From NCBI GenBank assembly GCA_965202625.1, contig CBDBBI010000010.1:416001-480000 (forward strand): a stretch of 64,000 nt of DNA. Reading direction: 5' to 3'. Both the position numbers and the translations under genes were made by a program. This stretch comes from a bacterium. GTDB lineage: Bacteria > UBA8248. A model generated the notes under the pieces. It ran no database searches. It had not been told where the DNA came from and saw only the letters and a list, made by a program, of their open reading frames with translations. Of the stretch, positions 16,945 through 36,631 are shown piece by piece (position 1 is the stretch's first letter; every line of letters begins with the position of its first letter).

Positions 16945-16946
16945 GG

Positions 16947-17864: not shown

Positions 17865-18799
17865 TCCGAACGGCTTATCTTTGGCCGCCGGAATCGCTCC
17901 TACATGACAACGGCCGGCACGTAGAGAACATAGCGCGCGCCAGACGACTAGCACCCGATAGGATCGTTCCGCAAATTCCCCATCTGGCGGAAGTGCCGAT
18001 CAAGCACCACGATGTCAGAAAATGGGTTCTCACGGTGCATGAGGAGTCGCACCATCGGTTCGTGCGCGAATCGTGCGCGGGAGGCGGATACGTTCTGGAT
18101 CGTGGCGATACGCAGGCCGGGCCTGGAAGCTATGAAGCCGCACTCGCCGCCGTGGATGCGGCACTGAGCGCGGCGGACGCCGTCATGGCGGCGGAAGCCG
18201 ACAACGCTTTTTGCGCCATCCGGCCGCCGGGCCACCACGCTTTACCCCATCAGTCCATGGGTTTTTGTTTGTTTGCCACCGCGTCCATTTTGGTTCGATA
18301 TCTACAGGAGCAACATGGGCTTAGCAGAGTCGCCGTGGTGGACTGGGACGTCCATCATGGAAACGGCACGCAGTATGTCTTCTGGCGTGATCCCGACGTG
18401 CTTTTCGTCTCCTTGCATCAACATCCGCACTATCCGGGCACGGGTCTTGCCAATGAAACGGGAGAGGGCGCCGGCCAGGGCAAGACGCTGAACGTTCCCA
18501 TTATGGCGGGGACTTACGAGGAGGAGTATCTCATACAGTTTCAAGAGAGCGTCGTCCCCGCCGTCGAGGCGCACGCACCGGAGGCGATCGTCGTATCAGC
18601 CGGCTTTGACGCGCACCGAGACGATCCGCTCGGAGAATTGATGATTAGCGAAGAGGGGTTCGCCTGCTTGACCCGGTCCGTAAAGGCGCTTTCTGAGAAT
18701 TTATGTTCAGGACGCCTCATCAGTCTGCTTGAGGGAGGATACGATCTCGATGCCTTGGAGCGTTCCGTTCTGGCTCACTTGCGGGAATTGTCCGCATGA
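17861..18799 (+). CDS. Histone deacetylase-family (AcuC/acetylpolyamine amidohydrolase-like) protein
   Basis: RPPGHHA, GFCLF, DWDVHHGNGTQ, SAGFDAHRDDPLG and LEGGY. Confidence 0.92.
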   Translation: MIRTAYLWPPESLLHDNGRHVENIARARRLAPDRIVPQIPHLAEVPIKHHDVRKWVLTVHEESHHRFVRESCAGGGYVLDRGDTQAGPGSYEAALAAVDAALSAADAVMAAEADNAFCAIRPPGHHALPHQSMGFCLFATASILVRYLQEQHGLSRVAVVDWDVHHGNGTQYVFWRDPDVLFVSLHQHPHYPGTGLANETGEGAGQGKTLNVPIMAGTYEEEYLIQFQESVVPAVEAHAPEAIVVSAGFDAHRDDPLGELMISEEGFACLTRSVKALSENLCSGRLISLLEGGYDLDALERSVLAHLRELSA

Positions 18800-20019: not shown

Positions 20020-20031
20020 GGGACGCGCGGC

Positions 20032-22446
20032 ATGTCGATACATTCGATTCCCGAAAAATTGGAAATTCCCGTTGAGGGTATGTCGTGCGCAGCATGTTCG
20101 GCGCGATTGGAGAAGCGACTCAACGCGCTCGATGGCGTCCTGCGCGCAAACGTGAGTTTGGCCCTGGCGCGCGCGCGAATCGAGTTTTTTCCTGCCCAGG
20201 TGACGCCTGCCGATATCGCCAAAAGAGTCGAGAGAACAGGTTTTCGCGTTCCGTATGCGGAAGTCGATTTTATCGTCGAAGGGGTGGAGGATGCGGAGGA
20301 CGCCGCTCGCTTGGAGGAGCGATTGACTCGGCTCGACGGCGTCGTATCCACCAGCGTGGATTTCTCGACGGGTAGAAGTCGAGTCAAATTCCAGCCGGCC
20401 ATCGTCGTGGTCGATGACGTTCTAGAATGTGTGGAGAAAGCGGGATACGCGACGCGCGTTCTGATGGATGAGGCGCAGAAAACCGAGAGGCGCAAACGCG
20501 AACACCAGCGCAAAAAAAATGCGCTTCTGCTACTGATGTCCATCGTTTTATCCGCGCCGCTTCTTATGCAGATGGTGGGGATGAGCCCAGGTGCGGCGCA
20601 ATGGGAGCTGCCCAGGTGGTGGCAATTTGCGCTTGCTACGCCGGTGCAGTTCATCGCAGGCTGGCGATTTTATCGGGGAGCATATCATTCGCTTCTGGGT
20701 GGCGGCGCGAACATGGACGTTCTCGTCGCTTTGGGAACGAGCGCTGCTTGGCTCCATAGCAGCGTGGTGACCTTGCGGGATTTAAGCGCGAATCATGTGT
20801 ATTTTGAAGCGTCCGCGATTTTGATCACGCTCGTTTTGCTTGGAAAAGTGCTTGAGGAACGCGCCATGGGCAGAACTTCTGACGCCATGAAAAAATTGAT
20901 GGACCTTCGGGCGAGGACGGCGAGAATCCTGAAAGACGGGGAGGAGCGCGAGCTCCCCGTGGAGCAAGTCCGCGTGGACGATGTCGTGGTCGTGCGTCCG
21001 GGCGAGAAATACCCCGTAGATGGAATCATAGTGTGGGGTGCCACTTCCGTGGATGAATCCATGCTGACGGGCGAGAGTGTTCCTGTGGCCAAGGCGGTGG
21101 GCGACGGCGTCACCGGGGCTACGCTCAACGTTGACGGGGCGGTGAGGTTCAGAGCGACGAAAGTGGGAAAAGAAACGATGCTGGCCCAGATCATACGAAT
21201 CGTGGAGCAGGCGCAAGCCTCCAAAGCACCGATTCAACGCATGGCGGATAGGGTGTCGGGCGTTTTCGTGCCAGTCGTGATGGGAATTGCCGCTATCACT
21301 TTCTTTCTTTGGCACAGCTTGGGAGGAGGATTCACGCCCGCGCTGGTCAACGCGGTCGCCGTTTTGGTCATCGCTTGCCCATGCGCTTTGGGTTTGGCGA
21401 CGCCTACGGCCATCATGGTGGGCGCAGGTAAAGGGGCTGAGGCCGGAATTCTTATTAAAAGCGGCGAATCTCTGGAAACTGCGCATAAAATAGACGCCGT
21501 CATCGTGGATAAAACGGGTACGCTGACGAGGGGCAAGCCTGTGGTGACCGATATGTTGCCGCTGAACCGGCTGGGAGAGGAGGAGTTGCTCCAGCTGGCG
21601 GCAAGCGCTGAACAGGGATCGGAGCACCCTCTGGGCAAAGCGCTGGTGGATGCGGGCAAGGTGCGCGGAGTGGAACTGCTTGAGATGAACGATTTCCGGG
21701 CGCACCCCGGCCATGGTTTGGAAGCGAGGGTGGGGGGGCGAAAAATGTATTTGGGAAACGAAAAATTCATGGCGGCGCATGGCGTGAGCGCGCCTCGCGA
21801 TACCGACGAGATGCGCCGGATGGAGGCGCAGGGGAAAACCGTCGTGTTGCTCGCCGATGAGGAAGGGTTGCTGGGCATCATCGGCATCGCCGACATCCTG
21901 AGGGAGCACTCGGCTGAGGCGGTGAAATCACTCCAGAATATGGGAATCGAAGTCTATATGATGACAGGGGACAACGAGCGGACGGCGCGCGCCATTGCGG
22001 CACAAGCCGGAGTGCGTCACGTGATGGCGGAAGTTATGCCGGATGAGAAGGCGGCCATGGTGGAGGAACTCAGGCGAAGCGGCAAGAAGGTGGGGATGGT
22101 GGGAGACGGCATCAACGACGCTCCAGCGTTGGCCGCCGCGGACGTAGGGTTCGCTGTGGACACAGGCGCGGACGTCGCGACGGAGGCGTCGGATATCACG
22201 TTGATCCAGGGAGATTTGATGGGCGTCGTGGCGGGTATTCGCCTCTCAAAGGCTACGATGCGGAAGATTCGCCAGAATCTTTTCTGGGCGTTTTTCTATA
22301 ACGTTCTTGGCCTCCCTCTGGCGGCGTTTGGTTTTTTGAGTCCCATATTCGCTGGAATGGCCATGGCATTCAGTTCCGTGTCCGTCGTGTTGAACACTTT
22401 GTTGTTGCGGAGGTGGAAACCCGCCTGTCGGGAGGGCGCGGGGTAG
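20032..22446 (+). CDS. copA: Cu(I)-translocating P1B-type ATPase
   Basis: GMSCAAC HMA domain, [27 protein letters not shown] and MxxSS motifs. Confidence 0.95.
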
Positions 22447-22671
22447 ATTTTTAGCCGTGGCCTTGGCCGAGGCTTCATTGTGACGTCGGGCGAAGCGTGT
22501 TTTGGGGATGAAATGTAGGGCGGATGCGAATGTTTCCTCTCGCCTTGGTGGTTTGGTCTCACGCGATACTCCCCAAAACGTAAGGCGCGAATGCGCATCT
22601 GTTTTTTTCCGAACGATCGGGCGGCGTTCTCACGTCTGGCATCGACCATCCTCATTATGCGGGGATATACA

Positions 22672-22882
22672 ATACAAAAAGTAGAGCCAGTTGTGCGGGG
22701 AAATGAACTATGAGACGTGCCAATCGAATGTTCAAGATGCGCTTGGAGGTGTGGAAGGCGTGGCGGAAGCCATTGTAGATTCTTTAGCGGCAGAGAAGGC
22801 AAGAATCGTATTTGAGAAAGGGGTGACGAATCTTCCCGCTTTGTGCACCGCCATAGAGAAGGCAGATTTTGAAGTCAATTAA
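22672..22882 (+). pseudogene. copZ: Decayed copper chaperone CopZ (HMA domain)
   Basis: IQKVEPVVRG, then a +1 shift, then MNYETCQSNVQDALGGVEGV...AIEKADFEV. The start appears to be ATA and GMxCxxC has become GMNYETC. Confidence 0.7.
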
Positions 22883-22988
22883 ATTTTTATGAAACAATAT
22901 GTTATATGTAATACATAAAGTATGACATGAGTATTTTGCCCCGCTCCCTTCTTCCTCTCAAGTGCGTCGGGGGATTTGTTGAAATCTC

Positions 22989-23612
22989 CTACCTCGGCTG
23001 TCCATCCTCGAAACTCCTTTCCAGAAACTCGCCCAGCCTACATTGCCAAAAGCCGTTCAGGCGACCGATAGGTTCCAGTTTCCGCGCGTCGATGTATTTG
23101 TCCGTCATGACTTTCGGGCTGACGTGAAAATACACCACCTCTCCGATCAGCAAGGGATGCTTGTTCGGCCCCAGCTCAAACACGTTGTGGGTTTTGCACT
23201 CAAAGTGAATGGGCGCGTCCTTGATGCGAGGAGCCTGTACCTTCCTGGCGGGTATCGGTTCAAGGCCGGCGGCGTCGAATTCGCTCTGCTGTGCCGGAAT
23301 GCCGTTCGCCGTATCCACCATCTGCTCCCAATGGCGCTCGGTGACCACGTTGAAGCAGAACTCTCCGGTTTCCTCCGCGTTGATGAGGGTGTGTTTTTTT
23401 GTTCCATCTGGGTTTCGCGCCACGGTGAGCGATATCATAGGCGGTGCCACGCACACGCAGGTAAAGAAGCTGAAGGGTGCGATGTTGTGAATCCCGTCCT
23501 TGCTGACGGATGACGCCCAGCCGATGGGGCGGGGGACGATAGAGCCGGTGAGCAGGCGATAAATCTCCCGCCGCTCGATCGCTTTGGGGTCAAACTCCAG
23601 ATATTCGCTCAT
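22989..23612 (-). CDS. Flavin reductase-like (FMN-binding split barrel) protein
   Basis: YRLLTGSIVPRPIGW, NIAPFSFF, KHTLINAEETGEFCFN and PIHFEC. Confidence 0.9.
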   Translation of the reverse strand: MSEYLEFDPKAIERREIYRLLTGSIVPRPIGWASSVSKDGIHNIAPFSFFTCVCVAPPMISLTVARNPDGTKKHTLINAEETGEFCFNVVTERHWEQMVDTANGIPAQQSEFDAAGLEPIPARKVQAPRIKDAPIHFECKTHNVFELGPNKHPLLIGEVVYFHVSPKVMTDKYIDARKLEPIGRLNGFWQCRLGEFLERSFEDGQPR

Positions 23613-23657
23613 CAGGAATCCTCAAACGGTGGCGTGAAACCAGCGGTGCGGGTGCCC

Positions 23658-24425
23658 CTACGCCATGAAGCGTCCCGCGTTCACGGCGATGGTCTGGCCG
23701 GTCAGATAGGCGGATTCGGGCGACGCCAACATGAGCACCCAGCCCACGACGTCCTCCACCTCGGCGATGCGGCCGAGGAGCGTTCCCTTGCCTATCATCT
23801 CGCGCTGTTCCTCGGATCGCACCGCAATGACGCGCTCGGTCGCCGTGGTTCCGGGCGCGATGGCGTTTACGCGCACGTTGTATCGTCCCAAGTCGTAGGC
23901 GAGTACGCGGGTGAGAGCGTGGACGCCCGCCTTGGCAGCCGCATAGGGCGGGGAGGAGGGTTGGAGCGTGGTGAGTCCCGACATTGAGCCCAGGTTGATC
24001 ACGCATCCGCGGTTTTGTTTCTCAAAAATGGGCGTTAGATGTTTTGAGGTCAGGAATACGCTTTTCAGGTTCTTGTCCACCACAGAGTCCCATTCGACTT
24101 CAGAGGTCTCGCCCATGGAGAGCTGCTGATGAAAACCGCCCGCGCAGTTGACGAAAACGTCGATGCCGCCCCCCTCGCGCACGATGCGTTCTATCATCTC
24201 TTTTACGGCGGCGGAATCCGTGAGGTCGCAATGGATGAAGGAGGCGTCGCCCCCATTGCCGCGAACGGCCGCCGCCGCCGCCTCTCCAGGATCGGCGTCG
24301 ACGTCGACGAGATAGACCCTGGCGCCCGCCTCGGCGAACCTCTCAGCGGATGCTTTTCCAATGCCGTGTGACGCGCCCGTGACGACGGCGACCTCTCCTG
24401 AAAAATCAAACCTTGTCTTGCCCAT
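23658..24425 (-). CDS. Short-chain dehydrogenase/reductase (SDR)
   Basis: TGASHGIG, VNCAG, YAAAK and VNAIAPG. Confidence 0.92.
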   Translation of the reverse strand: MGKTRFDFSGEVAVVTGASHGIGKASAERFAEAGARVYLVDVDADPGEAAAAAVRGNGGDASFIHCDLTDSAAVKEMIERIVREGGGIDVFVNCAGGFHQQLSMGETSEVEWDSVVDKNLKSVFLTSKHLTPIFEKQNRGCVINLGSMSGLTTLQPSSPPYAAAKAGVHALTRVLAYDLGRYNVRVNAIAPGTTATERVIAVRSEEQREMIGKGTLLGRIAEVEDVVGWVLMLASPESAYLTGQTIAVNAGRFMA

Positions 24426-24659
24426 GAGACGCTCCCCTTAGCGGACGATGCGCTTTTCGCGACGCTAAATATGTTTTGTTGACGACGTGAGACGGCCGCT
24501 TCTCTTTGTGCGGCGTCTCCGATTCTATGGTTTTTGCTTTCATAATTCAATTTCAATGGGATATGGACGATCTGCGACCTCGCCCGAGGGCGGTGCCAGG
24601 CTTCTCGCTCTGAGGAAAAACCAATGCAGCCTGCCTGTTTCCCTCGGGCGGACGCCATC

Positions 24660-24689
24660 TTGTCCCGACGGTTCGGGTCATAATATAAT
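24660..24689 (+). promoter_or_regulatory. Putative sigma70 promoter for the partner-helicase module
   Basis: TTGTCC-18 nt-TATAAT about 50 nt upstream of ATG 24741. Confidence 0.5.
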
Positions 24690-24740
24690 GAAGTTTCATC
24701 CGTCCGACTCTGGATATTCCTAGGTCCGAGAGAATCGCCG

Positions 24741-27131
24741 ATGACAGTCGAGAACAGCAAGATTGTTGAAGCGATAAAGGATTGGGCGCGTCGCTTATGG
24801 CGTCGAATAACGAGCTCAACTCCCGAGGAAGAGGATGACTCGCGCAATCCGCCAGATGGAACTGGTGAACCCGAATCACAAAATGCGCCAACAAGACGCG
24901 AACCGGAGCGAGAACCACCAGACGCGCGTTCCGGCGATATCGATCCTATAGATGATACCGATCCTGTAATGACTCGCCCCGAACCTGAACCCCTCGTTTG
25001 CGATGCGGGTGATGGGCAAGACGGCCTGCCTCGACCACCCGACCCACCACCGCCTGAGACTTCTGAGCCTACAGGCAATGCCCCAACGGGGGAGGGTGAA
25101 GAATCAACGGAACCTACGCTAAAGGCCTCAAGCGAGATTGGGGGGGAGGGAAAACGCAATGGGACTTCGACGAAAAATCCCCAGAAGATATCAGAAGATA
25201 ACAACGAAATGGATCGCAAATTCACGCCTCGCCCAGAGATCATTTGCCGAAATCTCCGCGGGCATTGGAAAGTGTTTCTGTCCGTAGATGACGAATGCGG
25301 CGTCAAGGAGGTGCGGCACAGCGGCGGCGAAACTTTGCCCGTGTCGGACGGCGAATATCCCCTCCCGTCCTTAGCCGGAAGCTTGTCTGTCGTCCTTGAG
25401 GACGATGGGCATAGTGAATTGATAGTTCCTTTGTTTGACGGCAAACCCCTCATCTTCAAGTTGCAGGAGGATTGGACCGGCGACGGACACAAGGTCGAAC
25501 GCATCACGAAGGGGTACTTCGTCGTCATCGCGCCGAACACCTGGACGCGCACGGGGCGCATTCGCGTGGAGTCGCAAGAGTGCGTAGATCCAAACTTCAA
25601 AGCGCACTATTTCTTTCAGCAACCAGGTGAAGCAGAGGCGGACGTGGGCGGCTTTAAGGAATACTCCGGGCCGTTGTTCGCCAATTCTTCCCTTACGCTC
25701 AAGGGCGAGCGCGTTTTTGACGACTCTGATGAAGGGGAGCTGTTCATAGGCGCCGTTCCAGAGTTGACTCCCTCGCAGGAAATCGCCTGGGTAAGGGTTG
25801 GCGAAGAACGGACGGGCGGCTGGAAGGGCGATAGCTACAGGCCGGACGAGAAAACTCTCGCTGACGTGCTGAACGACCGGCAAGGGCGGTTTTATGTCCG
25901 CGTTTACGGCAACGAGTCGAAGAAGATGGTGGATAGCGATCAGTTTCGCTATCTACAAAGTCTCAAAGAGATTCGTGTAAACGATGAGCTATATACGAAA
26001 GACGTGATTCTTGCGCCGCCTCCTGCAGGGTATCCTCCGACAGAGGTGTGCTTTGTCGGCGTCGATGGCGCGCCCATTCGCCCCATCTTGCCGTCCGAAG
26101 CAGCGCACGTGAAAGTGCTAGGGAGCGATCTCATCGTGGATCCGGTTCCGTGCAGCGACAACATATCGTGCGTGCTGGAGTCCGACACCGGTCGCGTCGA
26201 TATCGTCTTGAATCTGCCGCGCATCTGGTGGCGGATGGCGCGAGGCGGTGAGGAAGCCGATGAATGGCGAGATACCCCCCTGACGATGACGCGACAGGAA
26301 TATCGTGCGAATGCGGAGGCGGAAGCGGCAATTCATTTGCGTCTGCCGCGAAAAATCAAGTCGGTTCTCGTGGGTTTCGGGGATGAGGGGGATCGATCAT
26401 ACCGCCAGAAAAAGACGGGAGACGACATCGCGATTCCACTGATGAATTTCGCCGATTATACGCAGATTGACGAGCGGCTGAAACAGGACGCCTTGTTTAA
26501 CGCCCGATATGGCGAGGTAGATTGGACGCTTGTCAGGGTTTTTGCCGACCCCGCGCCGAGGATCGTCTCCTTCGAGTCGGAACCAGGGAAGATTGCGGTC
26601 GGAGGGACGGCGACGTTGCGTTGGGCGACCAAGAACGCGGAGGCTTGCGGCGTTCAGATCGATTCCGGAATCGGGGCGGTCGAACCTAACGGGAGTCGTG
26701 AGGTTGCGCCCTTGAAGAACACAACCTACACGCTGAGGTTGACGGCTCCCTATGTGGATAAGGTGATGGGAACTGTTCATGTGACCGTCAGCGTGCAGGA
26801 GTCGGGCACGACACCACCTGTCGTCACAACGGTGGACTATATGGCCGCGTCAACGACTTATGACGAAATGTTTGAAGAGGCGCTTGATGTCGTCAAGAAT
26901 CGCTTTTTACTCTCGGTGCTGCTCGCCAAGCGGGTGGCACAACTGCGGCAGGGGGCGGAGCCCCTGGTCGCCGCGCAGCCGAGGGACACGCAGCCGAGGG
27001 AGACGCATGAGCAGATCGTGTTCCGGGAAATTATCGAGGAGAAGCTGGAGTGGCGAAAGACCGCCTCGGCGGCTGACTTTTCCGACATGGACCACGGGTT
27101 TGCGGACGAGGGGTTCGACGACGGAGAGTAG
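24741..27131 (+). CDS. 796-aa helicase-associated protein: disordered N-terminus, beta-rich core, Ig-like domain and C-terminal RNA polymerase omega (RpoZ) domain
   Basis: Pro/Glu-rich residues ~25-155; Ig/PKD-like segment (PRIVSFESEP...ATLRW...TTYTL, 26550-26795); residues 701-796 contain ALDVVKNRFLLSVLLAKRVAQLRQGAEPLV...IVFREIIEEKL. Confidence 0.8.
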   Translation: MTVENSKIVEAIKDWARRLWRRITSSTPEEEDDSRNPPDGTGEPESQNAPTRREPEREPPDARSGDIDPIDDTDPVMTRPEPEPLVCDAGDGQDGLPRPPDPPPPETSEPTGNAPTGEGEESTEPTLKASSEIGGEGKRNGTSTKNPQKISEDNNEMDRKFTPRPEIICRNLRGHWKVFLSVDDECGVKEVRHSGGETLPVSDGEYPLPSLAGSLSVVLEDDGHSELIVPLFDGKPLIFKLQEDWTGDGHKVERITKGYFVVIAPNTWTRTGRIRVESQECVDPNFKAHYFFQQPGEAEADVGGFKEYSGPLFANSSLTLKGERVFDDSDEGELFIGAVPELTPSQEIAWVRVGEERTGGWKGDSYRPDEKTLADVLNDRQGRFYVRVYGNESKKMVDSDQFRYLQSLKEIRVNDELYTKDVILAPPPAGYPPTEVCFVGVDGAPIRPILPSEAAHVKVLGSDLIVDPVPCSDNISCVLESDTGRVDIVLNLPRIWWRMARGGEEADEWRDTPLTMTRQEYRANAEAEAAIHLRLPRKIKSVLVGFGDEGDRSYRQKKTGDDIAIPLMNFADYTQIDERLKQDALFNARYGEVDWTLVRVFADPAPRIVSFESEPGKIAVGGTATLRWATKNAEACGVQIDSGIGAVEPNGSREVAPLKNTTYTLRLTAPYVDKVMGTVHVTVSVQESGTTPPVVTTVDYMAASTTYDEMFEEALDVVKNRFLLSVLLAKRVAQLRQGAEPLVAAQPRDTQPRETHEQIVFREIIEEKLEWRKTASAADFSDMDHGFADEGFDDGE
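26841..27131 (+). other. rpoZ: RpoZ (RNA polymerase omega) domain, in frame within the 796-aa ORF and with its own ATG
   Basis: 96-aa segment from ATG 26841 with the omega signature NRF.L....AKR..QL..GAEPLV and A/F-REI...K, followed by an acidic tail. Confidence 0.8.
26974..27007 (+). repeat. 15-bp tandem duplication inside the omega domain
   Basis: CGCAGCCGAGGGACA / CGCAGCCGAGGGAGA / CGCA, encoding QPRDT-QPRET. Confidence 0.85.
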
Positions 27132-27162
27132 CCTCTCCCCCCTCCGTGCGCGTCAGTTGACG

Positions 27163-27234
27163 CCCATCGACAAACGCCGTCGCAGTGCACACCAGCGCAA
27201 CATAGAGATGCTTGGGAGGTTGATGGATGCCTGA
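27163..27234 (+). pseudogene. Orphan C-terminal coding remnant resembling ribosomal protein L13e
   Basis: Reads PIDKRRRSAHQRNIEMLGRLMDA*, similar to the archaeal L13e motif IPVDKRRRS.H..N.E.L. Its TGA overlaps the helicase ATG (ATGCCTGA). Confidence 0.55.
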
Positions 27235-30200
27235 CGCCAACGACATGCAAACCATACAAACCTGGCCCGAAAAAATTCGACAACGTTACGAGAACTATTT
27301 GATAACCTCCTTTTTTTTTTCAAAGAGCCAAAATTGCGGGAATCGTTCCAGGCGGCTCTTCAAGAAGAGGGGAATCTTTTGAAAGGCCCATGCACCGAAA
27401 CGGACCGGGGCTTCAAGACCGGCTCAAGCGCGAGGGCATTGGCAAAGGGATGTTTTCCGGACGAGAGCGAAGGTATTCTCCCTGCACTGATCGATGCCCC
27501 CTTGTATTCGCATCAGGAAGGAGCCATTCGCGCCGCGCATATCGACGCCCGGAACGTCGTCGTCGCCACTGGTACCGCCAGCGGCAAAACGGAGAGTTTT
27601 CTCTACCCGATCCTTTTCGAGTTGTATCGCCAGCATCTCTTTGGGGAACTCGAAGAGCCAGGCGTGCGTGCGATGATCCTGTATCCAATGAATGCGCTCG
27701 CCAACGATCAGCGCGAGCGTCTGGGCAAAATCTGCAAGCATTTGCGCGATGCAAATTCGGCGTTCGCGCCGACGTTCGGACAATACATTGGGCAGACGCC
27801 CGAATCCGCTACGGACCGTTGGCGCAATGCCGCCGAGCGGGCGAAAGAACGCCTGCCCGGAGAACTCGTATTCCGCGACGAAATGCGAAAGAAGCCGCCC
27901 CATATTTTGCTGACGAACTACTCCATGCTGGAATATCTGCTTATTCGCCCCGACGACAGCCCTTTGTTCGACGATGGCCGCGGCGCGCGCTGGCAATTTA
28001 TCGTGCTTGACGAGGCGCACCAGTATCGCGGCGCCAAAGGCATGGAGATGGGTATGCTCCTCCGGCGCCTCAAGCAGCGGCTGCGCGACGGAGGACGGCA
28101 AGGTTCGTTCCGCTGCATCGCCACCAGCGCGACCATTTCCTCTGGCGAAAGCGATAAAGACAGGCGAGTTGTCGCCGAATTCGCGCAGGAGCTGTTCGGA
28201 GAACCCTTCCAGTCGGCTGGCGTTATTTTTGGCGATACACGGCCGGAAGCCACTGATTGTCCTCCACGCCGCTATCATGCCTTTTTGCGCGCTCTTGAAG
28301 GGGCGTTTCTCGTTCACAGGGACGGCGCGGATGCTGTCGTGCTCAATCGGAAGAGCGAAACTGAGAACGGGTCAAACGCGAAGCCGTTGGAAATCGCCCT
28401 GTGCCGTGAATGCGGCCAGTATTACTACGTTGGTCAGGAGCGAGACGGAAATCTGGGAGAAGCCGTCCGAGACCCCAGTCAACCCGACTTTGGCGTGGAC
28501 TATTACCTGGCAGCGAAGGATGGAGACAAGTGGCTGTGCAGGCTCTGCGGCGCGCTTTCAAAATCCACGTCGAGTTGTGATTGCGGCCCGGAGGTTCGCG
28601 TGAAGGTGAAGAAGTGCAAGAGTCACAAAGGGCACCCCGACCAACTGAAGGAATGCGAGACCTGCGGTTATCAACGCGGCGGCATCGGCGATCCGGTGCA
28701 GGAGATCGTGCATGGCTCCGACGGGCCCAACGCCGTCATCGCTACCGCCCTGCACGAATTGCTGCCGGAAGACAAACGCAAGGTGCTTGCCTTCGCCGAC
28801 AGCCGGCAAGAGGCAGCGTTCTTTGCCTGGTATGCCGAGGACTCCTACGAGAAGCTGCGCGACCGCAACCTCATGTTGCGGGCGATCAAGGCGGGAAAAG
28901 TCGTCCCGGAAGGCCTGTCTATCGACGATCTCCGAAACCGGCTGCACAAAGAGTGGGAGCAGGCTGGTCTGTTCAGGGAGACGGATTCGTCGGAAGGGCG
29001 AGACCGACGGGTGCTGACGTCAATTCTGCGCGAGGCGCTGACGGACGAAAGGCGGCTGTCCTTGAGTGGTGTTGGCCTGGTCAGGTGGTTCGTCAGGATT
29101 CCCGACAAGTTGCATTTGCCGGAAGCCATGCGAGAACCGCCATGGAAATTCACGAATGCCGAGGCGCGGCATCTGATCGGGTATCTCCTGGACGAGTTGC
29201 GCCTGCGCCGCGCCATGGACTTGCCGAAAGGTGCCGCAACGCCTGCATGGGGCGACGTATTGCCTCAACGGCCGCAGCAGGCTTACGGCAGCGGGTCGCC
29301 GGGCAAGCGACCGAACGTCTCTGAATGGGGCAGCCCTCAATCCGCAGTCATCCGACATTTCCTTCACCGGTTGCTTGATGACAGCGGCCTGTCTGAAGAA
29401 GGGAAGCAATCGGCGTCGAGGAAACTCATGAAGGACGTGTGGAAAAAGCTACGGAGTTATTGCGGCGAAACCATCCTTTCGTGCGGACGTGTGAACGGTA
29501 CGTTTCGGCTTGATCCGCGCTGGCTGCGGCTCAAGCCGGTTGCGCCTGGCGAAATCTGGGAGTGCGACACCTGCGCGACCTTGAGCGCTCACTACGTTCG
29601 CGCCGTCTGCCCCCGGAATCGTTGTCCCGGAACCCTGGTGCCCGCCGACGGAAGGCGCCTCGAGAAAAACCACTATCGCATCCTCTACGAAAGCGATGCT
29701 TTTCCTCCCGCTCTGAGGGCGGAGGAGCACACTGCACAGATCGACAGCGACGCGGCGCGCCAAAGGCAGAACGAGTTCAAGAATGGCAAGATCCATCTTC
29801 TCAGCTCTTCCACTACGTTTGAAGTCGGCGTCGATTTGGGGGATCTGAAAGTCGTGTTTCTCCGCAACGTGCCGCCGGAGCCGTTCAACTACACCCAGCG
29901 CGTCGGACGCGCGGGGCGAAGAGAGACTGGCTTGGCGCTGACCTACTGCCGCCGCAATCCACACGACTTATATTACTACGAAGATCCGGGGCGCATAATT
30001 GACGGCGCGGTGCATCCGCCGCGCCTGCGGATGAAGAACGAGAAAATCATCCTGCGGCACCTTGTCGCCACGGCCCTCTCCGCGTTCTTCAGGAAAAACG
30101 TTAGAGCGCGCTTCACCAAAGTAGAAGAATTTGTGAAAGACTGGTCGAGCCCCCGCGCCGCGTCCGATCTCAAGGAGTTTTGCGAGCGCAACAGCGAGTT

Positions 30201-31497
30201 GACGGATTCACTCCGCCAAATCGTTCCGAAGGACATGCGCGAACGAGCGGGGCTCAAGGATGACGCCTGGATTGAGAACGTCGCGGGACCAAAGAGTCGG
30301 CTCGCCAAGGCGGAGGCGGAAGTATGCGCAGATTACAAAGAGATGTCGAAGACTAAGGATACTCTCATCAAGGAGCAGCCTTCCAGGTGGACTGACAAAG
30401 TCAAACAACTGCAAAAACGTATGAAAACCATCGCCGGCGAACAAACCTTGAATTTCCTCTCACGCAAGGCCGTCATACCGAAATACGGGTTTCCGGTCGA
30501 CGTCGTCGAACTCGATACTCGGCCCGAATACGGCAACCGGACGGGCGTCACGCTCCAGAGAGATTTGTCCCAGGCTATCGCTGAATACGCGCCGGGCGGG
30601 AAGGTGGTGGCCAACAAACAAGAGTGGGAATCATGCGGCGTGAAGGTGGTGCCCGGAAAGGCATGGCCAGTCCGACGTTATCAATACGATGACGCCCGCA
30701 ATTTTGCGCAATGGAATGAAGGTGATCCATCCAGCTCGCACAAGCGCCTGGGGAATATGCAAGCTTATGGGAAATACTTGATCCCGGAGTTTGGTTTCGT
30801 AACGCCGTTGTTCAAGAAGCCCGAGAAGCCGAGCCGGCGAGCGCAACGATTGTACACAACCCGGCCGTTCTTTGGAGGCTTCGCTAACGACCCTCGTCTC
30901 GAAACTAAGACAATCCTCGGCGTCCAAATCACTAAAGCGGTGCCTGGTACCCTGGTCATATTATGCGAGGGCAAGAACAGGGAAGGCTTCTATATCTGCC
31001 GTTCGTGCGGCGCCCACATGACAGCGAAGAAAGCCGAGCACAAATCCCCCTCGGGTTCCGAATGTCGAGGCACCTTGGAACGCTTCTCGCTTGGGCACGA
31101 ACTGGTCACGGATGTGGTGCGCTTGCAGTTTCCGGGACTGCGTGACGAATGGAAGGCCTATTCCGTCGCCTACGCTGTCCTGCTCGGCGCGGCGAAGGCG
31201 CTGGACGTTCCGGATATGGACCTGAACGTGACGATTACGGGCGGCGGCGATTCGGATGCGTCCGCGATCGTGCTCTACGACAACGTGCCTGGCGGAGCCG
31301 GACTGGTGGAGCAACTGGAGCGGGAGAGCGTCTTCAGAGAGACGCTTCAAAACGCGCGCGCGCGGGTGGAGGGCAACTGTGGCTGCGACGCAAGCTGTTA
31401 CGGCTGCCTGCGCAGCTACCGCAACCAATTCGCGCATCCGCATCTGGATCGAGAGCAAGCGTTGCAAGCGTTGGAATCCCAACTCGCGCACGCATGA
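27227..31497 (+). CDS. Large SF2 DEAH-box helicase with Zn-binding motifs and C-terminal DUF1998 (Druantia DruE-like); frameshifted at T10 (27311-27320)
   Basis: PLYSHQ, TGTASGKTESF, YPMNALANDQ, TNYSMLE, VLDEAH, TSAT, FADSRQ, STTFEVGVD, QRVGRAGR; several CxxC pairs; LYDNVPGGAG...CGCDASCYGCLRSYRNQ. GGAGGT plus ATG 27227 gives MPDANDMQTIQTWPEKIRQRYENYLITSFFF, which joins the 27334 frame only with T8 or T11. Confidence 0.9.
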
Positions 31498-31644
31498 GAA
31501 CTTCAGGTTGTCTTCTCGTCGCAAGAGGCCTTGCAAGCCCTGGAATTCCGACAGCGTAGCTATGGCGCTGGACATCCCCTGAATTTGCTTGGTCCTGGGT
31601 CGGTTATTTCGGCTCTTTGGGGTTCTCATTTCACGGATGGAATC

Positions 31645-31803
31645 TCAATCGCCGCCTTTGATGAGCGCGGAGAACGTGGCGATGATTCCGTTGTCGTAAA
31701 GCGTCCATGCCGTCACCACCACCACGAGCGTCAAAACGCTGAGGAGCAGATATTCGAGCAAGCCATGCTTGGCGACGGATTTTTGGGAATTTCGTTTTGT
31801 CAT
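31645..31803 (-). CDS. Small Flp-pilin-like membrane protein (52 aa, below the ORF-track cutoff)
   Basis: MTKRNSQKSVAKHGLLEYLLLSVLTLVVVVTAWTLYDNGIIATFSALIKGGD: basic leader, EY motif, hydrophobic helix and TF. Confidence 0.55.
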   Translation of the reverse strand: MTKRNSQKSVAKHGLLEYLLLSVLTLVVVVTAWTLYDNGIIATFSALIKGGD

Positions 31804-31991
31804 GCGGGGGTTCTCGCGCTATGAGGGCCATGAAAAAGATGGAGGCGGTCGTGCACATTATAAACGCGACTCCTCGCTGGCGAAACCGGGCGCGCGGCGG
31901 GGAATGAAAATCTGAATGGACAAGGGTGGGGCATCCGTTTATGGTATGGTATAGATTGTCTGTCATTCTCCCGGGGAGTTTTGTATTGGGC

Positions 31992-32555
31992 ATGGATTCC
32001 GCAAAGCATAATTTTGGCGAGGCCGAAAAAATTCGAACGGAGGCGATTGGAGTTGCGGGCAAAAGGATTTTTCGCATTCTGATTGATTGTCCAACAAGGG
32101 CGGCCGCAACTCTTTGGCTGGAGAAAGAGCAGGTCTACGGCCTTTCGATGGCCATGAAGAAGATGGCGGGTGCGAAAGAGCCGGAAGGGCGAGCGAACCC
32201 GGATGCGGATTTTCCGGACGTCGCCGAGGCTGATTCCGCACCGCTGAGTCCCGGCGTCTTGCTCGAGTTCAAGGTGAGTCGTTTGGGGCTTGCGTATGGG
32301 CCGGGCGAGAGTCGTGTCACCGTCTTTTTCTACGACGAGTGCGATGAGGTTTCTGAAGGAGAAGAAGAATACGAGGCGGAAGCCGTCTCCCCCCCTGCGT
32401 TGCAGGTGAACATCGGCCAGGCGCAGATGGATGAATTTATCACCCAGAGCTTGGATGAATGCGCATCCGGGCGGGGAACCGACGCTCTCTCTCGCCACGC
32501 CATGGTGGCTACCGGAAAAGTTGACCCCAATACGAATGGGCATTTTCATCATTAG
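31992..32555 (+). CDS. DUF3090-family protein
   Basis: EAIGVAGKRIFRI, TLWLEKEQV, EFKVSRLGLAY, terminal NGH, and adjacency to an SCO1664-family gene. Confidence 0.75.
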   Translation: MDSAKHNFGEAEKIRTEAIGVAGKRIFRILIDCPTRAAATLWLEKEQVYGLSMAMKKMAGAKEPEGRANPDADFPDVAEADSAPLSPGVLLEFKVSRLGLAYGPGESRVTVFFYDECDEVSEGEEEYEAEAVSPPALQVNIGQAQMDEFITQSLDECASGRGTDALSRHAMVATGKVDPNTNGHFHH

Positions 32556-32586
32556 GGCGTCGCCGTCCATCCCATAGGAAAATCCA

Positions 32587-33366
32587 GTGGCCCGGAGATA
32601 CGCATCTCGCAGAAGCCCTGACTCTTTGGAGCCGTCTAGAGCGCGGGCGCACCGATTCGCGCCGGAGGAAATCGAAGACCTCCTCCGTACTTCCGAAATC
32701 CTGGACGGCGAGCTGGTCCCGCAAGGCTCGAACTATACGTTCGCCGTGAAAATGAGCGCGGAGAATCTTCAGTTTTGGGGAATATACAAGCCGGCGTGCG
32801 GAGAGCGTCCCCTTTGGGATTTTCCTTACGGGACGCTTCATCTGCGGGAGAGGTGTTCTTTTTTGGTGAGTCGTCATCTGGGGTGGCACTTGGTTCCTCC
32901 GACGGTCATTCGAGAAGGCCCGCATGGCGAGGGTTCCCTGCAGCTTTGCGTGCCCTATGACGGGAAGTCGAACTATTTTACGCTCAGGGCGGAGGCGCGC
33001 CCGGAACTCTTGTTGCTCGCCGCTTTTGACGTCATGGTGAACAACACGGATCGCAAGGGTGTGCATTGCTTTAAGTCCGAAGACGGCCGCGTCTGGGGGA
33101 TTGACCATGGTCTCACGTTTCATTCTGAGCCAAAGCTGCGCACCGTTATCTGGGACTACGCGGGGTTTTCCTTGCCCAAGGAGCGGGTGCGCGACGTCAA
33201 TCGTCTCGATGAGGACTTGCGAAATGGAGAAAGCCCTTTGAGGCGCGAGATGGACGCCCTTTTGGAGTCTGAGGAAGTGGGCGTTTTTATAGAGAGAGTG
33301 ATGCGGTTCAGGGAAAAACCATGCTTGCCGACGCCGGAGGAGTATCGGCGCCTGCACTTTTCATAA
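32587..33366 (+). CDS. SCO1664-family (PI3/4-kinase-like) protein
   Basis: GSNYTF, IYKPACGERPLWDFPYGTL, VPPTVIREGPHGEGSLQ, FDVMVNNTDRKG and GIDHGLTF. Confidence 0.88.
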   Translation: MARRYASRRSPDSLEPSRARAHRFAPEEIEDLLRTSEILDGELVPQGSNYTFAVKMSAENLQFWGIYKPACGERPLWDFPYGTLHLRERCSFLVSRHLGWHLVPPTVIREGPHGEGSLQLCVPYDGKSNYFTLRAEARPELLLLAAFDVMVNNTDRKGVHCFKSEDGRVWGIDHGLTFHSEPKLRTVIWDYAGFSLPKERVRDVNRLDEDLRNGESPLRREMDALLESEEVGVFIERVMRFREKPCLPTPEEYRRLHFS

Positions 33367-33489
33367 TTTTGGAGCCTAGGTTGCAACGGTCGAGGAGCCG
33401 GAAGGCGAGCGAGGGGCAAGGATAGAGAGATTAGGCGGGAGCAGGGAAAGTTTCCTGAAACCCGAAAATGGTTCGTGACGGCGATTTTG

Positions 33490-33854
33490 TCCGGAAATAT
33501 CGATTGGCAATTATATACTTGAATCTGCAAAGGAATTAAGAAAATCCCTTTCCATGCAATTATCCACAACAACTTTAGTTGTTGGATACTACCAATTTTT
33601 CCAAACTTGGTTACATTAAATATATTAAATATAGGAAAAATATCTGCTACAAAAACCGCAAATGCGTTTTGTGTCACCAAACACCCCGAGTGTGTTTCTT
33701 TTTTTGCTTGTTCTTTCATGGCTTCTCTTTTTTGTGCTTTTTGATCGTTGGATGTTTGCTTGGCGAATTGTGGTGGCTTATATTTCTCTACACCCTTCAC
33801 ACAACCCACTAGAATTATCCCGATTGCAACAATTCCCAAGATAAGATTTCTCAT
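33490..33854 (-). pseudogene. AT-rich, probably degenerate lipoprotein gene
   Basis: Lipobox signal MRNLILGIVAIGIILVGC in a markedly AT-rich stretch. The ORF later loses protein-like character and runs antisense into the SCO1664 gene; the 3' boundary is approximate. Confidence 0.4.
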
Positions 33855-34044
33855 TATTGCAACTCCCGGTATGTTGTTCTTATTCCCATATCGGTTTGAC
33901 CATATAATTTCTTGATTCTATCTGAAAGGGAAACTTTCTGCCTTTAGACGTTTACGGCAGGTGGTTCAATGAAAACAAAATATAACTAACAACCAGTAAA
34001 AGAGCGAATTGAAGCGAGATAATTTGGTGCTTCTTCGGCGAACG

Positions 34045-34947
34045 CTAGGTGTTCTTGTGCCAGAGCCGGGGGCGGTTCACCTTTTTGATATGGGTCGCGA
34101 CGTATCGCACGAGGTCGGGGTTGCCGATGAGGAGGGATCGACGCCATTTGCGCGCGGCGTCTAAGTCTTTGGGCGTGTTTTCCTCCGAGAAGAACTTCTC
34201 CAACTCGCTCCATCTCTCGGTATAGAGACGCCGGGCGAGTGTTATGCCCCCCGCCTCTTTCACGATGAGAGTCCCTGCCGCCACGTCCCAGATGCTCGGG
34301 ACGCTAAAGAGCGCGTAGTGCAGGCTGCCGCGCGCCACGAGTGCCTGCTCGTAGCACATAGAGCCGGTGGAGCGCACCTCGCCCAGGTTTTTCTTGAGTG
34401 GTCCCGTAGGGCGAAATTGCGTCCAGTACGTCCCAGGGAGCGCGGCGATACGCTTTCCCGTGGGTCGATTCTCGCGCGCGGCTTCAATGGGGCGCCCATC
34501 CCGAAACGCCCCGCCTCCCTCGTGCGCGCAATAGATGACGCCTTTGTCCTCAGGTGTGAAAATAGCCCCCGCAACGGGGCGACCACGCTTCAAGACCCCC
34601 ACGGAACAGCCCCAGACGTGTAAGCCGTTCAGAAAATTTTTCGTGCCGTCCAGAGGATCCAAAACCCACAGATATTCGGGCAACGCGCGCGCGCCCTGCC
34701 TTGTGGCCTCATCCTCATCTTCGGGTTTCTCCTCGCCGAGGACGCCATGAGCGGGAAATTTCTCGTTTATCGCCTTTGTCAAAAACGCCTGGCTCGCGCG
34801 GTCGGCTTCGCTCACCGGGTCAGTTTCGTCCTTGTTTTTGTAGTCCACCTTCACTTGCGCACCGAAAAGACCCATCAACATTTCTCCCGCCTCACGGGCG
34901 AATTTTGAAGCGGCATCGCTGAGGGTCTGGGGGGTGGGGTCGCTCAT
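34045..34947 (-). CDS. Inositol monophosphatase family protein
   Basis: PVSEAD, LGEE, WVLDPLDGTKNF and WDVAAG. Confidence 0.92.
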   Translation of the reverse strand: MSDPTPQTLSDAASKFAREAGEMLMGLFGAQVKVDYKNKDETDPVSEADRASQAFLTKAINEKFPAHGVLGEEKPEDEDEATRQGARALPEYLWVLDPLDGTKNFLNGLHVWGCSVGVLKRGRPVAGAIFTPEDKGVIYCAHEGGGAFRDGRPIEAARENRPTGKRIAALPGTYWTQFRPTGPLKKNLGEVRSTGSMCYEQALVARGSLHYALFSVPSIWDVAAGTLIVKEAGGITLARRLYTERWSELEKFFSEENTPKDLDAARKWRRSLLIGNPDLVRYVATHIKKVNRPRLWHKNT

Positions 34948-35993
34948 GCCTCGCGCTCCAGGGGAGATAGGCCCAGTCTTCGCGCGATTTCGTCGAGCTC
35001 CGCAAGCCGCTCGGGCGATAGTGTAAAGCCGTCTCGTCTGCGCGCCGTCTCCTGCTGACGCTCGATTTCGCCCGGTATGAAAATGCGCTCGACGCCCACC
35101 GCCTTTGGTGTCGCCTTGATGACGGAGATAAACGCGTTGGCGGCGGCTCGAAATTTCGACAAGGGGAGCAGTGCCTCGACGTTGATGGCCGCGAAAACGC
35201 TGGTGACGCGACTCTTGCCGCTGAACTCGTTGATACCCACGATTTCGTGGCTATGGCCTCCACCGGCGAACGACCCCAATATCGCGTCAATCACGATGGA
35301 AAGGCCGCTTCCCTTATAGCCCGCAATCGGGGAAAGGAGGGAGCTTTCCAGAACCTCGTTGGGGTCGGTGGTGGGTTTTCCCTCCTTATTTAGTCCCCAA
35401 CCCTCGGGAATGGTTTTGCCGGCACGCGCCGCCTCAATGATATAGCCGCGCGCCACGACGGAGAGTGCCATGTCCAGCACCATGGGCGGCTCGCTTGGCA
35501 CGGCGATGGAGATGGGGTTGTTGCCGATCTTGGCTTCGCGTCCTCCGGCCGGCGGCAAAACGCGCAGCGTGTTCGTCGTCACGAGGCCCACCATGCCCGC
35601 TTCCGACGCAATGGCTGCATACGTTGCCGCGGCGCCGAAATGGTTGCTCTCCTTGAGCAGGACGACGCCCACGTTGTGTTTTTTCGCGCGTGCGATGGCC
35701 TCTTCCATCGCGCGTCTGGAGACCACTTGCCCCATGCCGTTGTCGCCATCGGCGAGTGCGAGCGCGCCGGCGCCCTTGACGAGCCGGAAATTCGGGTTTG
35801 GATTCGCCAACTTGACTTCCAGCCGTTTGGCGTAATGGGGCATGCGAATGACTCCGTGGCTGGTGACGCCGCGCAACTCGGCCATCACGAGCGTCTCCGC
35901 CGTCCAGGCAGCGTCTCCCTCCGGCAAACCCAACTTCGCGAACGCCTCACGCAAAAACAAGTGGAGCTTCGCGCCTGTCGTATGCCCTCTCAT
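34944..35993 (-). CDS. Ldh_2 (malate/L-lactate/L-sulfolactate dehydrogenase) family oxidoreductase
   Basis: AELRGVTSHG, DGDNGMGQV, SNHFG, GNNPIS, LDMA, YKGSGL and IPGE. Confidence 0.92.
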   Translation of the reverse strand: MRGHTTGAKLHLFLREAFAKLGLPEGDAAWTAETLVMAELRGVTSHGVIRMPHYAKRLEVKLANPNPNFRLVKGAGALALADGDNGMGQVVSRRAMEEAIARAKKHNVGVVLLKESNHFGAAATYAAIASEAGMVGLVTTNTLRVLPPAGGREAKIGNNPISIAVPSEPPMVLDMALSVVARGYIIEAARAGKTIPEGWGLNKEGKPTTDPNEVLESSLLSPIAGYKGSGLSIVIDAILGSFAGGGHSHEIVGINEFSGKSRVTSVFAAINVEALLPLSKFRAAANAFISVIKATPKAVGVERIFIPGEIERQQETARRRDGFTLSPERLAELDEIARRLGLSPLEREA

Positions 35994-36631
35994 TCGAAGC
36001 CCTCGCGCGTGAACAAATACGCCATCCCGTGCCTAACGTGTTCTCCGATGCTCACCGCGCTCAAAAAGTCAGTCCGAGAAACCGACCATCGGTTCACCTC
36101 GCTCAATTCCCTCACGCTCCAGCCGGGCGCGTTCCATAGCGCCTCGCTTCCGGCGTAGCCCGGTCCTCTTTGCGCTACTGCCAGGTACCAGCGCAGGCTG
36201 GGTGCGCGCAGTATCAGCTGCTCGGCGCCGGAATCAAACGGCAGCCAGCAGGAAAACACGAAATCAGGCGCGTGGGCGATGAGCGCGTCTCTCGCGTCCA
36301 AATGCTCGGTTTCACCGCTGCCGACTGGATCGGTGAGCGTAAGGTTCACTCCGCCCGCTTGCAGTGCTTTTCCAATCACGGCGTTGCCGGCCCCTACTTC
36401 AAGGAGCCTTCGGGGCGAGAGAGCGGAGATTTCTTCTATCAGCGCATCCAGCCACTCTACGACGGGGAGTTGATAGATGTTTTTTCTTTCGCAGAAAACG
36501 AGCCAGCCTTCGCCTCGCTCTTCCTTGGCAAGCCTCGATATGGCTTCGGCGTAGGGCAGGGGGTTCACCCAGAGCTCCGCATGAAGCGAACCTTTGTCTG
36601 TCGTTTTACGCGCGAAACAAAGCGACACCAT
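35990..36631 (-). CDS. Hypothetical protein with a SAM-dependent methyltransferase-like motif
   Basis: LLEVGAGNAVIG glycine motif and FSCWLP; sits in operon order between uxaA and the Ldh_2 gene; start uncertain. Confidence 0.55.
   Translation of the reverse strand: MVSLCFARKTTDKGSLHAELWVNPLPYAEAISRLAKEERGEGWLVFCERKNIYQLPVVEWLDALIEEISALSPRRLLEVGAGNAVIGKALQAGGVNLTLTDPVGSGETEHLDARDALIAHAPDFVFSCWLPFDSGAEQLILRAPSLRWYLAVAQRGPGYAGSEALWNAPGWSVRELSEVNRWSVSRTDFLSAVSIGEHVRHGMAYLFTREGFE

Follow-up and report, generated by a model that had tools for sequence, protein, structure and literature searches.

Druantia type III, known from Escherichia coli where it stands next to Zorya II and ARMADA II, is a two-gene operon in which the gene for DruH comes first and overlaps the start of the gene for a large YprA-family helicase, DruE. 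DruH is described as an N-terminal globular domain followed by several immunoglobulin (Ig)-like domains and a C-terminal domain, and it is characterised as a binder of single-stranded DNA (10.64898/2026.05.12.722862) and presented as a likely sensor of phage proteins (10.64898/2026.05.12.724681). The PLD-like domains of E. coli DruE are reported to have no catalytic motif and to be dispensable for defence (10.64898/2026.05.12.722862). Furthermore, a "Druantia Type III-like" or Type III-B branch of the YprA family has been described, in which a nuclease domain is most often absent from the helicase (Bell et al. 2025, PMC12458937). Here we analyse a locus of related build in a stretch of 64,000 nucleotides (the window; positions 416,001 to 480,000 of contig CBDBBI010000010.1, assembly GCA_965202625.1) from a bacterium of the lineage UBA8248. 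Two plus-strand genes lie in succession in this window, an upstream gene for a partner protein of 796 amino acids (24741-27131) and a downstream gene for a DEAH/DUF1998 helicase of superfamily 2 (27227-31497). We found that the partner belongs to a large unnamed family with an exchangeable C-terminal tail, and that in the window this tail is a recently captured copy of the host's own rpoZ, the gene for the omega subunit of RNA polymerase.

The likeness to Druantia type III is one of build. In both, two genes form an operon, the partner gene stands first and runs into the helicase start, and the helicase is of the DruE clade of YprA and carries DUF1998 as well as zinc modules. Both partners are rich in Ig-like domains and have distinct end domains, by structure model in the present case; this likeness of architecture need not mean shared ancestry. 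DruH, however, has 1119 amino acids against about 530 for the core of the present family, with no detectable shared sequence, and it begins with a baseplate-like globular domain whereas the partner described here has a disordered N-terminus. The exchangeable tail is a feature of the present family, unlike DruH; it is most often similar to eL13, a ribosomal protein of eukaryotes and archaea that bacteria do not have, and in other members it corresponds to a host protein. The helicases differ as well, since E. coli DruE has 2104 amino acids with the two C-terminal PLD-like domains of type III-A and the present one about 1420 without them. In being nuclease-free, the window helicase resembles the Type III-like branch of Bell et al. 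(PMC12458937), a match made by description and not by tree placement; the main text of that paper names no partner family and mentions neither ribosomal proteins, omega, L13 nor sponges, and its supplementary tables may list the clade. DISARM shares a YprA-family helicase with DUF1998, and DrmA models match the window helicase weakly (7e-20 in PADLOC). DISARM, however, has a separate DrmB carrying DUF1998, the PLD nuclease DrmC and a methylase, whereas here DUF1998 is fused to the helicase and none of these genes adjoins it.

The partner and its C-terminal slot

In Pfam, the only match of the partner is RNA_pol_Rpb6 (omega) at residues 715-769, with 32.9 bits against a cut-off of 26 for PF01192. 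We modelled the protein with AlphaFold2 from a 120-sequence alignment, which gave a mean pLDDT score (predicted local distance difference test) of 78.8. The model has an N-terminal helix (residues 5-24), a disordered region (25-146) and a beta-strand core (about 155-685, mostly above pLDDT 90), followed by a linker and the omega tail. The conserved part of this core (residues 155-683; 25203-26789, plus strand) is all-beta in the model, and we are confident in reading it as a predicted run of tandem Ig-like beta-sandwiches. Searched with Foldseek against the PDB, the core matched only generic multi-Ig proteins (contactins, complement C3) with template modelling (TM) scores of about 0.1, which gave no lead on function, and no DruH structure was among the 50 listed matches; look-alikes in the ESM Atlas reached a best score of 0.84, under the meaningful level.

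An earlier reading of the window, made from its letters alone (hereafter the sequence-only reading), had proposed PADLOC as a check on both proteins. For the helicase this returned DruE, while the partner core and two relatives matched no PADLOC model at E<=10. Furthermore, the DruH model PDLC00038 found nothing in the whole genome at E<=1, and a comparison of the partner family profile with E. coli DruH by hhalign gave a probability of 0.3% (E 0.18). As a positive control, E. coli DruH matched 10 DruH models in PADLOC. We also considered the partner of a DruE-like helicase on a Clostridium butyricum plasmid; hhalign found no similarity between it and the present partner, and it has no PADLOC match itself.

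A search with residues 150-700 returned 134 proteins of 443-1366 amino acids, almost all unnamed. Against 1.84 billion representative sequences, the core profile gave 1250 matches at E<=1e-30, the best 150 all below 1e-150; the weaker end of this list is inflated because giant repeat proteins contain the last Ig-like domain in many copies (P0003, P0124 and P0250 have 8, 47 and 20 matched stretches, respectively). Long N-terminal extensions of nine homologues contain no Pfam domain. A PIN domain at the N-terminus of P0098 (residues 9-125) and a DUF4389 in P0075 (residues 8-82) may be true fusions or run-on gene calls.

What follows the last Ig-like domain is usually a tail of about 70 amino acids with the pattern G-K-G-F-S...E-L...A-G-L...I-P-I-D-K-R-R-R-S-x-H...N. 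Its motif was found in strict form in 178 of the 249 family proteins; the other 71 include, by reading of the printout, some 20 variants of the same tail and some 10 truncated proteins. Compared with eL13 chains of the PDB, the family profile reached a best E of 6.9e-8 over eL13 residues of about 14-68 or 62-110 depending on the chain, and PF01294 scored above its cut-off in several family members. By these profile matches, the usual tail is homologous to eL13 over a core of about 50 residues only, and the proteins are not ribosomal proteins as such.

In a minority of the family the tail corresponds to a different protein altogether. We found uS17 in P0050 (model positions 1-67 of 68), both domains of uS5 in P0104, P0163 and P0241, bS6 in P0248 (positions 1-90 of 90) and the N-terminal domain of RpoA in P0238 (Pfam residues 649-843 of 874 amino acids), and these ribosomal-protein and RpoA tails match their respective Pfam or NCBIfam models nearly end to end. 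The start of TrcR stands in the same place in P0122 and a NusA C-terminal repeat in P0222 (E 1.7e-7, under the curated cut-off); a weak S1-like match is present in the tail of locus L037, and at least six more tail types that recur belong to no named family. Omega is the tail of one protein in 249, that of the window. At the DNA level, 32 of 43 related loci carry the eL13-like tail, eight carry other tails and three are unreadable, owing to a broken partner, a truncated partner and a contig end. No exotic tail was seen among the eight metagenome loci, where all tails are eL13-like.

The partner thus has a conserved core and an exchangeable C-terminal slot, as the sequence-only reading had predicted; that reading called the slot a sensor, which is one possible role for it. 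For tails of the unnamed types, we searched for stand-alone relatives in the genomes that carry them. The tail of the Dehalococcoidia loci (L027, L028, L030) belongs to no named family and has a free-standing relative of 149-150 amino acids in two genomes (47-48% identity); a third genome holds a weaker relative in a 178-amino-acid frame (40% over part of the tail). This tail may be an older capture of a host gene. One of the free-standing relatives lies at 1489-1938 of L065 (another is in L064), and the large open reading frame (ORF) upstream of it in L065 looks MoeA-like by eye. No paralogues of the L037 and L020/L036 tails were found in their own genomes.

The rpoZ copy in the slot

The window allows the origin of one tail to be followed directly. 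A free-standing rpoZ of 96 codons lies at another place on the contig that carries the window, and the last 96 residues of the partner are identical to this RpoZ at 96 of 96 positions. The omega tip noted by the sequence-only reading is present, and it is more than omega-like: it is a duplicate of the native gene, 311 bp long (26830-27140, plus strand) with 7 mismatches (97.7% DNA identity), that begins 11 nt ahead of the ATG and ends 9 nt past the stop codon, its coding part (26841-27131) being fused in frame to the partner. The rpoZ genes of congeners are only 75-83% identical to the omega tail, and the copy therefore comes from the window's own lineage.

Four of the mismatches fall in the coding part, all of them at synonymous third positions, with no non-synonymous change; the probability of four synonymous differences out of four is 0.003 if differences fell at random. 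Outgroup genes assign one of the changes to the tail copy and another to the native rpoZ, with two left unassignable. Seeing no non-synonymous change in the absence of constraint has a probability of 0.035 to 0.001 if one or two of the changes arose on the copy.

Between the omega stop codon and the helicase start, an untranslated frame (27148-27234, plus strand) reads A-R-Q-L-T-P-I-D-K-R-R-R-S-A-H-Q-R-N-I-E-M-L-G-R-L-M-D-A, then stop, that is, the last 28 codons of an eL13-like tail and a TGA. Of 1685 six-frame pieces of the window, it is the sole match of a hidden Markov model (HMM) built from 179 tails (E 1.6e-9, HMM positions 48-75), and its stop codon overlaps the helicase ATG as the partner stop codon does in canonical loci. 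The rpoZ copy, with a stop codon of its own, thus took the place of the front two thirds of an eL13-like tail, and the swap is recent. No eL13 remnant was found in eight loci with other tails (L020, L021, L027, L028, L030, L032, L036, L037), and the argument from the remnant is accordingly drawn from the window alone. Near the position that corresponds to the end of the omega copy, an insert also breaks the eL13 tail of L010 (11840-12127; about 23 amino acids, at HMM positions 40-45) and, by reading of the sequences, those of P0067 and P0231 (about 75 amino acids). These similar break points suggest a tolerated insertion site.

Sequencing data support the fusion. The window stretch was found in runs labelled sponge metagenome and in runs of a coded organism, from two studies. 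Contigs from two runs (X4 and X5) bridge both junctions of the insert, one side reaching from the partner core 36 bases into the copy and the other from 45 bases before the end of the copy into the helicase. The flanks of the native rpoZ lie on separate contigs of the same runs, and depth is equal at the fusion and at the native locus. As both junctions are bridged and the depths agree, an assembly chimera is unlikely; X4 and X5 come from one sample which may be the source data of the genome assembly, so that their support is not fully independent.

Helicase, linkage and surroundings

The helicase gene (27227-31497, plus strand) would encode about 1420 amino acids if read through, and its frame is broken, as the sequence-only reading had noticed. 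The real start, an ATG at 27227, opens a stretch to 27320 that lies in a different frame from the remaining 27334-31497, an open frame of 1387 amino acids. The helicases of relatives start about 35 residues earlier than this open frame, with M-P-D...W-P-E-K-I-R-Q-R-Y-E-N-Y-L-K-T-S-F-F-F-K-E-P. We located the break to a run of ten T (27312-27321), where relatives read YENYLKTSFFFKEP, the equivalent of eight T, so that the window has two T more; relatives avoid an unbroken T run at this point (TTT TTC TTC). A contig of 235 bases from another sponge metagenome, in the other study (X1, depth 3.9), is shorter than the window by 2 bases at the T run and by 9 bases at 27245, which restores the canonical in-frame helicase start; an in-frame allele therefore exists. 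The X4 and X5 contigs have the same T run as the window, and the ten T are thus a real or at least reproducible state. Full-length helicase is probably not made from the window allele unless the T run slips back, and, with a length difference of two between samples, the run could serve as an on/off (contingency) switch. In seven relatives (L008, L011, L015, L023, L026, L034, L036) the helicase match is split into at least two pieces, about 1.2 kb apart in L015; these could be frameshifts, insertions or errors of long-read assembly.

Pfam confirmed the proposed superfamily 2 helicase with DUF1998. In the 1387-amino-acid frame, a DEAD/DEAH domain (RecA1) with GTASGKT and DEAH motifs spans residues 59-269 (PF00270; 27508-28140), Helicase_C (RecA2) residues 794-863 (PF00271; 29713-29922) and the four-cysteine MZB/DUF1998 zinc domain, also known from MrfA, residues 1279-1359 (PF09369; 31168-31410). 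PADLOC gave DruE1 at 1.7e-156 (521 bits), DruE3 at 1.8e-148, and DruE2 and DruE4 at <=1e-109. Canonical E. coli DruE reaches 2180 bits on DruE3, about four times the 521 bits of the window helicase, which by these scores is a divergent member of the DruE clade. Grouping with the housekeeping MrfA/SftH-type repair helicases, the alternative that the sequence-only reading had named, was rejected: TIGR03817 scored 119.9 bits against a cut-off of 874, and other helicase equivalogs were far below their cut-offs. The genome has a second DUF1998/MZB match outside the window (G000:C10:925714-925941), in an open frame of 579 amino acids that may be a housekeeping YprA-type helicase.

The protein ends 29 residues past MZB, with no PLD or other nuclease family in Pfam, and the alignments to DruE models stop at positions 1674-1678 of 1776-2055, about 100-380 short of the model ends. 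Because both the protein and these alignments end soon after DUF1998, the helicase is without the C-terminal PLD-like domains of E. coli DruE. A tblastn search of plasmids returned 221 records, all below 60% identity (24-41% among those listed), and this helicase clade is therefore not represented among those plasmids.

We examined linkage of the two genes in 44 loci, namely 34 from genomes (one per species), eight from metagenomes, one from a further genome (G007) and the window. The 34 genome loci are in metagenome-assembled genomes labelled Binatia, Dehalococcoidia, Bryobacterales, Vicinamibacteria, Latescibacterota, Poribacteria, Limisphaerales, Alpha- and Gammaproteobacteria and Candidatus Spongiihabitans. 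The helicase lies directly 3' of the partner in 40 of the 44 (31 of 34 genome loci, seven of eight metagenome loci, G007 and the window), which bears out the expected linkage of partner homologues to this helicase clade; L022 is counted as linked on the first 100 or so helicase residues, after which its contig ends. Among the exceptions, the partner of L031 is truncated and nickel-transport genes come after it, L038 is fragmentary, with one piece each of core and tail, and the contig of the eighth metagenome locus ends inside the partner. In the remaining one, L006 (11988-15263), the partner stop overlaps a GmrSD_N (DUF262) gene, followed by an AAA_15/AAA_21/DUF3696 ATPase, in the helicase's usual place; a transposase-like ORF lies further along this locus.

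Across phyla, identity to the window proteins is 53-77% for the helicase and 27-52% for the partner, and the helicase is the better conserved in 30 of 30 loci. Clustering of all flanking ORFs revealed no third conserved gene. The commonest flanking gene, and the sole one common to more than three loci, encodes an N6-DNA-methylase/HSDR_N protein of about 650 amino acids and is present in four (L010, L018, L027, L028; in L018 at 16492-18462). Within the window's genus, one of 22 other genomes has the partner (2 of 23 with the window's own), and there the locus has a different genomic context, with 42% partner and 68% helicase identity to the window's. With this patchy distribution, the varying context and defence neighbours in some loci, the module looks like an accessory one that is spread horizontally.

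In the window, the pair stands between unrelated metabolic and housekeeping genes, as had been described: a trypsin-PDZ protease, a heavy-metal P-type ATPase, a flavin reductase and an SDR protein on the 5' side, and DUF3090, an SCO1664-family protein and an inositol monophosphatase on the 3' side. Among these flanking genes we saw no methylase, PLD nuclease or SNF2 protein adjoining the pair, in agreement with the sequence-only reading for the first two. That reading also gave the pair a putative promoter; a consensus-like site, TTGTCC-18-TATAAT (24660-24689, plus strand), with 10 of 12 positions matching, lies about 50 nt 5' of the partner start; such sites are, however, not more frequent in the window than in shuffled sequence (4 against 2.4 +/- 1.5). 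An Rfam scan of 20000-36000 at gathering thresholds gave no RNA family, and a tRNA scan of the window found none. Between the SCO1664-family and inositol monophosphatase genes, G+C drops to 0.45-0.48 at 33000-34500 against about 0.58 around; the largest ORF of this stretch (33156-33854, minus strand) has no Pfam match.

Possible roles of the tail

A defence function is indirectly suggested by the DruE clade of the helicase, the patchy distribution of the module, and the defence genes that appear as neighbours or substitutes in some loci. The reading that we favour, at a probability of roughly 40%, is that the pair is a Druantia-III-like variant whose partner docks with its tail onto the ribosome or RNA polymerase. 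The Druantia-III likeness proposed by the sequence-only reading holds for the DruE helicase and for the two-gene, partner-first operon, while it fails for the partner, which has no detectable homology to DruH. Under the docking reading, the nuclease-less helicase would be an ATP-driven motor acting on invading DNA, and the partner a cytoplasmic Ig-like scaffold or sensor whose exchangeable C-terminal module would dock it onto the gene-expression machinery. The eL13-like tail could bind ribosomal RNA without displacing a native protein, as bacteria have no eL13 of their own to displace. In other lineages this tail would have given way to complete, assembly-competent subunits of the 30S particle (uS5, bS6, uS17) or to parts linked to RNA polymerase (the alpha N-terminal domain, the NusA C-terminal repeat). 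In the window, the host rpoZ copy, inserted over the front of the eL13-like tail, would let the partner ride RNA polymerase as an omega fusion.

Three considerations make us prefer docking. Where the tails have names, they are whole parts of the 30S subunit or of RNA polymerase that are competent for assembly, or else polymerase binders, as the second NusA C-terminal repeat binds the alpha C-terminal domain. The RpoA tail is the N-terminal domain alone, which is the assembly domain of the enzyme. The eL13-like tail cannot mimic a protein of a bacterial host and could nevertheless occupy ribosomal RNA. In the two-hybrid work of Dove and Hochschild, omega fused behind another protein reportedly still assembles into RNA polymerase. 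Host factors of the same kind are recruited by other systems, EF-Tu in Avs7 and ribosomal protein S15 in the CRISPR-associated transposon of type V-K (10.64898/2026.01.04.697583). The likeness lies in parts of the translation machinery being drawn into an immune or mobile-element complex; as these systems are described there, however, they recruit the free host protein, whereas in the present case the system's own protein has a host gene copy fused to it.

Several points weigh against docking in a defence system. The theme of expression machinery comes from the minority of tails that have names, and TrcR, one of these, is a transcription regulator and a subunit of neither machine; moreover, the proteins with exotic tails other than the window's are known only as predicted proteins. 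Homology between the partner and DruH is not detectable at the sequence level, and no other defence gene was seen among the window neighbours of the pair. A load of about 700 amino acids on omega, alpha or a 30S protein could harm the machine that carries it. If a single one of the four changes arose on the omega copy, the evidence for selection there is weak (P 0.035), and with its frameshifted helicase and truncated eL13 tail the window copy may be decaying.

The main alternative, possible though rather unlikely, is that the tail is an integrated decoy, a bait that copies a host protein targeted by phage take-over factors, so that engagement of the bait releases or activates the helicase. 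The near-identical, own-host copy in the window, recently captured and not co-transferred with the module, is explained by a decoy equally well as by docking. The swaps to different host proteins are recurrent and independent and the partner evolves faster than the helicase in all 30 loci compared, both of which fit a decoy. So does the argument that DruH is a protein-recognising sensor of infection, as put forward in 10.64898/2026.05.12.724681, and the idea has been raised for one bacterial NLR (nucleotide-binding leucine-rich repeat)-like sensor (PMC11702601). The integrated decoys of plant NLRs, which copy pathogen targets (Cesari et al. 2014, as cited in PMC11702601), are alike in that a copy of a host protein is appended, repeatedly and independently; they are, however, another protein class in another kingdom, and the commonest tail of the present family has no host counterpart. 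A decoy would thus leave the eL13-like majority unexplained, since bacteria have no eL13 to mimic. Furthermore, the domain of RNA polymerase alpha that is modified by phage enzymes is the C-terminal one, yet the RpoA tail consists of the assembly domain only. We also know of no phage factor that targets omega, uS17 or bS6, which we count against the decoy as well.

Decay of the locus, which would be compatible with either docking or a decoy, we consider unlikely. On this account, illegitimate recombination inserted the rpoZ copy by accident and cut short the real tail, and the omega tail has no function. The two extra T and the extra 9 nt near the helicase start relative to the allele of the other sample, the eL13 tail cut down to a remnant, the single occurrence of omega in the family and the split helicases or remnants in eight other loci (the seven named above and L038) are all in line with it. 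The insert is, however, gene-sized and in frame, leaving the partner open for 796 codons, and its coding changes are four synonymous and none non-synonymous. Whole-protein tails stand at the same position in at least eight other family members, the similar interruptions in L010 and in P0067/P0231 suggest that the site tolerates insertion, and an in-frame helicase allele exists.

We give little credence to a role outside defence, in which the pair would serve accessory DNA or RNA maintenance on transcribing or translating complexes, for instance by clearing stalled polymerases or R-loops, with the tail as recruiter. MrfA, a repair helicase, does belong to the YprA family (PMC12458937), those tails that have names point towards RNA polymerase and the 30S subunit, and the window neighbours are housekeeping genes. 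The helicase nevertheless scores as DruE and not as a repair helicase, the module is patchy and changes context within one genus, L006 has GmrSD_N and an ATPase in the place of the helicase, and restriction-type methylases are neighbours in four loci. Finally, that the omega tip is a chimeric join in a metagenome-assembled genome is very improbable: although the genome is in 10 contigs with 4.69% estimated contamination and the repeat is short and nearly identical to native rpoZ, two mis-joins would be needed, the junctions are bridged by at least 36 and at least 45 inner bases at equal depth, the copy differs from native rpoZ at 7 positions, and the eL13 remnant is exactly where a real insertion would leave it.

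The docking reading can be taken further, in a form that we hold to be speculative and, as a whole, improbable. The partner would then be an immune sensor mounted by its exchangeable tail on the transcribing or translating machinery, its Ig array meeting phage proteins during their synthesis or take-over factors upon their arrival at the machine, and the DruE-like helicase would be handed to the very DNA that is being transcribed. Foreign and self would be told apart in cis through coupled transcription and translation, with no modification mark, and the slot would evolve by capturing whole host genes, of which rpoZ in the window would be an instance.

In the literature covered by our search, outside which supplements lay, we found no account of the partner family, none of a bacterial defence protein with an eL13-like domain, and none in which a host subunit of RNA polymerase or of the ribosome is joined to a defence protein. 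New are the partner family and its slot for host-derived tails, while the helicase and the operon logic are those known from Druantia. The mechanism of Druantia, a widespread system, is only beginning to be understood, through work of 2025-2026, with the discrimination of foreign from self still an open question. With a nuclease-free DruE clade linked to a large partner family that has no name, the bounds of Druantia become wider, and the exchangeable tail of this family offers a concrete connection, open to test, between a defence helicase and the machinery of gene expression. Were the tails baits, they would be literal integrated decoys in bacteria, an idea that we found only as a hypothesis for one bacterial NLR-like sensor (as set out in PMC11702601). 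The window catches a domain swap in progress, in which the copy has kept 97.7% identity to its source and what is left of the displaced tail can still be read, and thereby provides rare direct evidence for the acquisition of host-derived modules by immune proteins.

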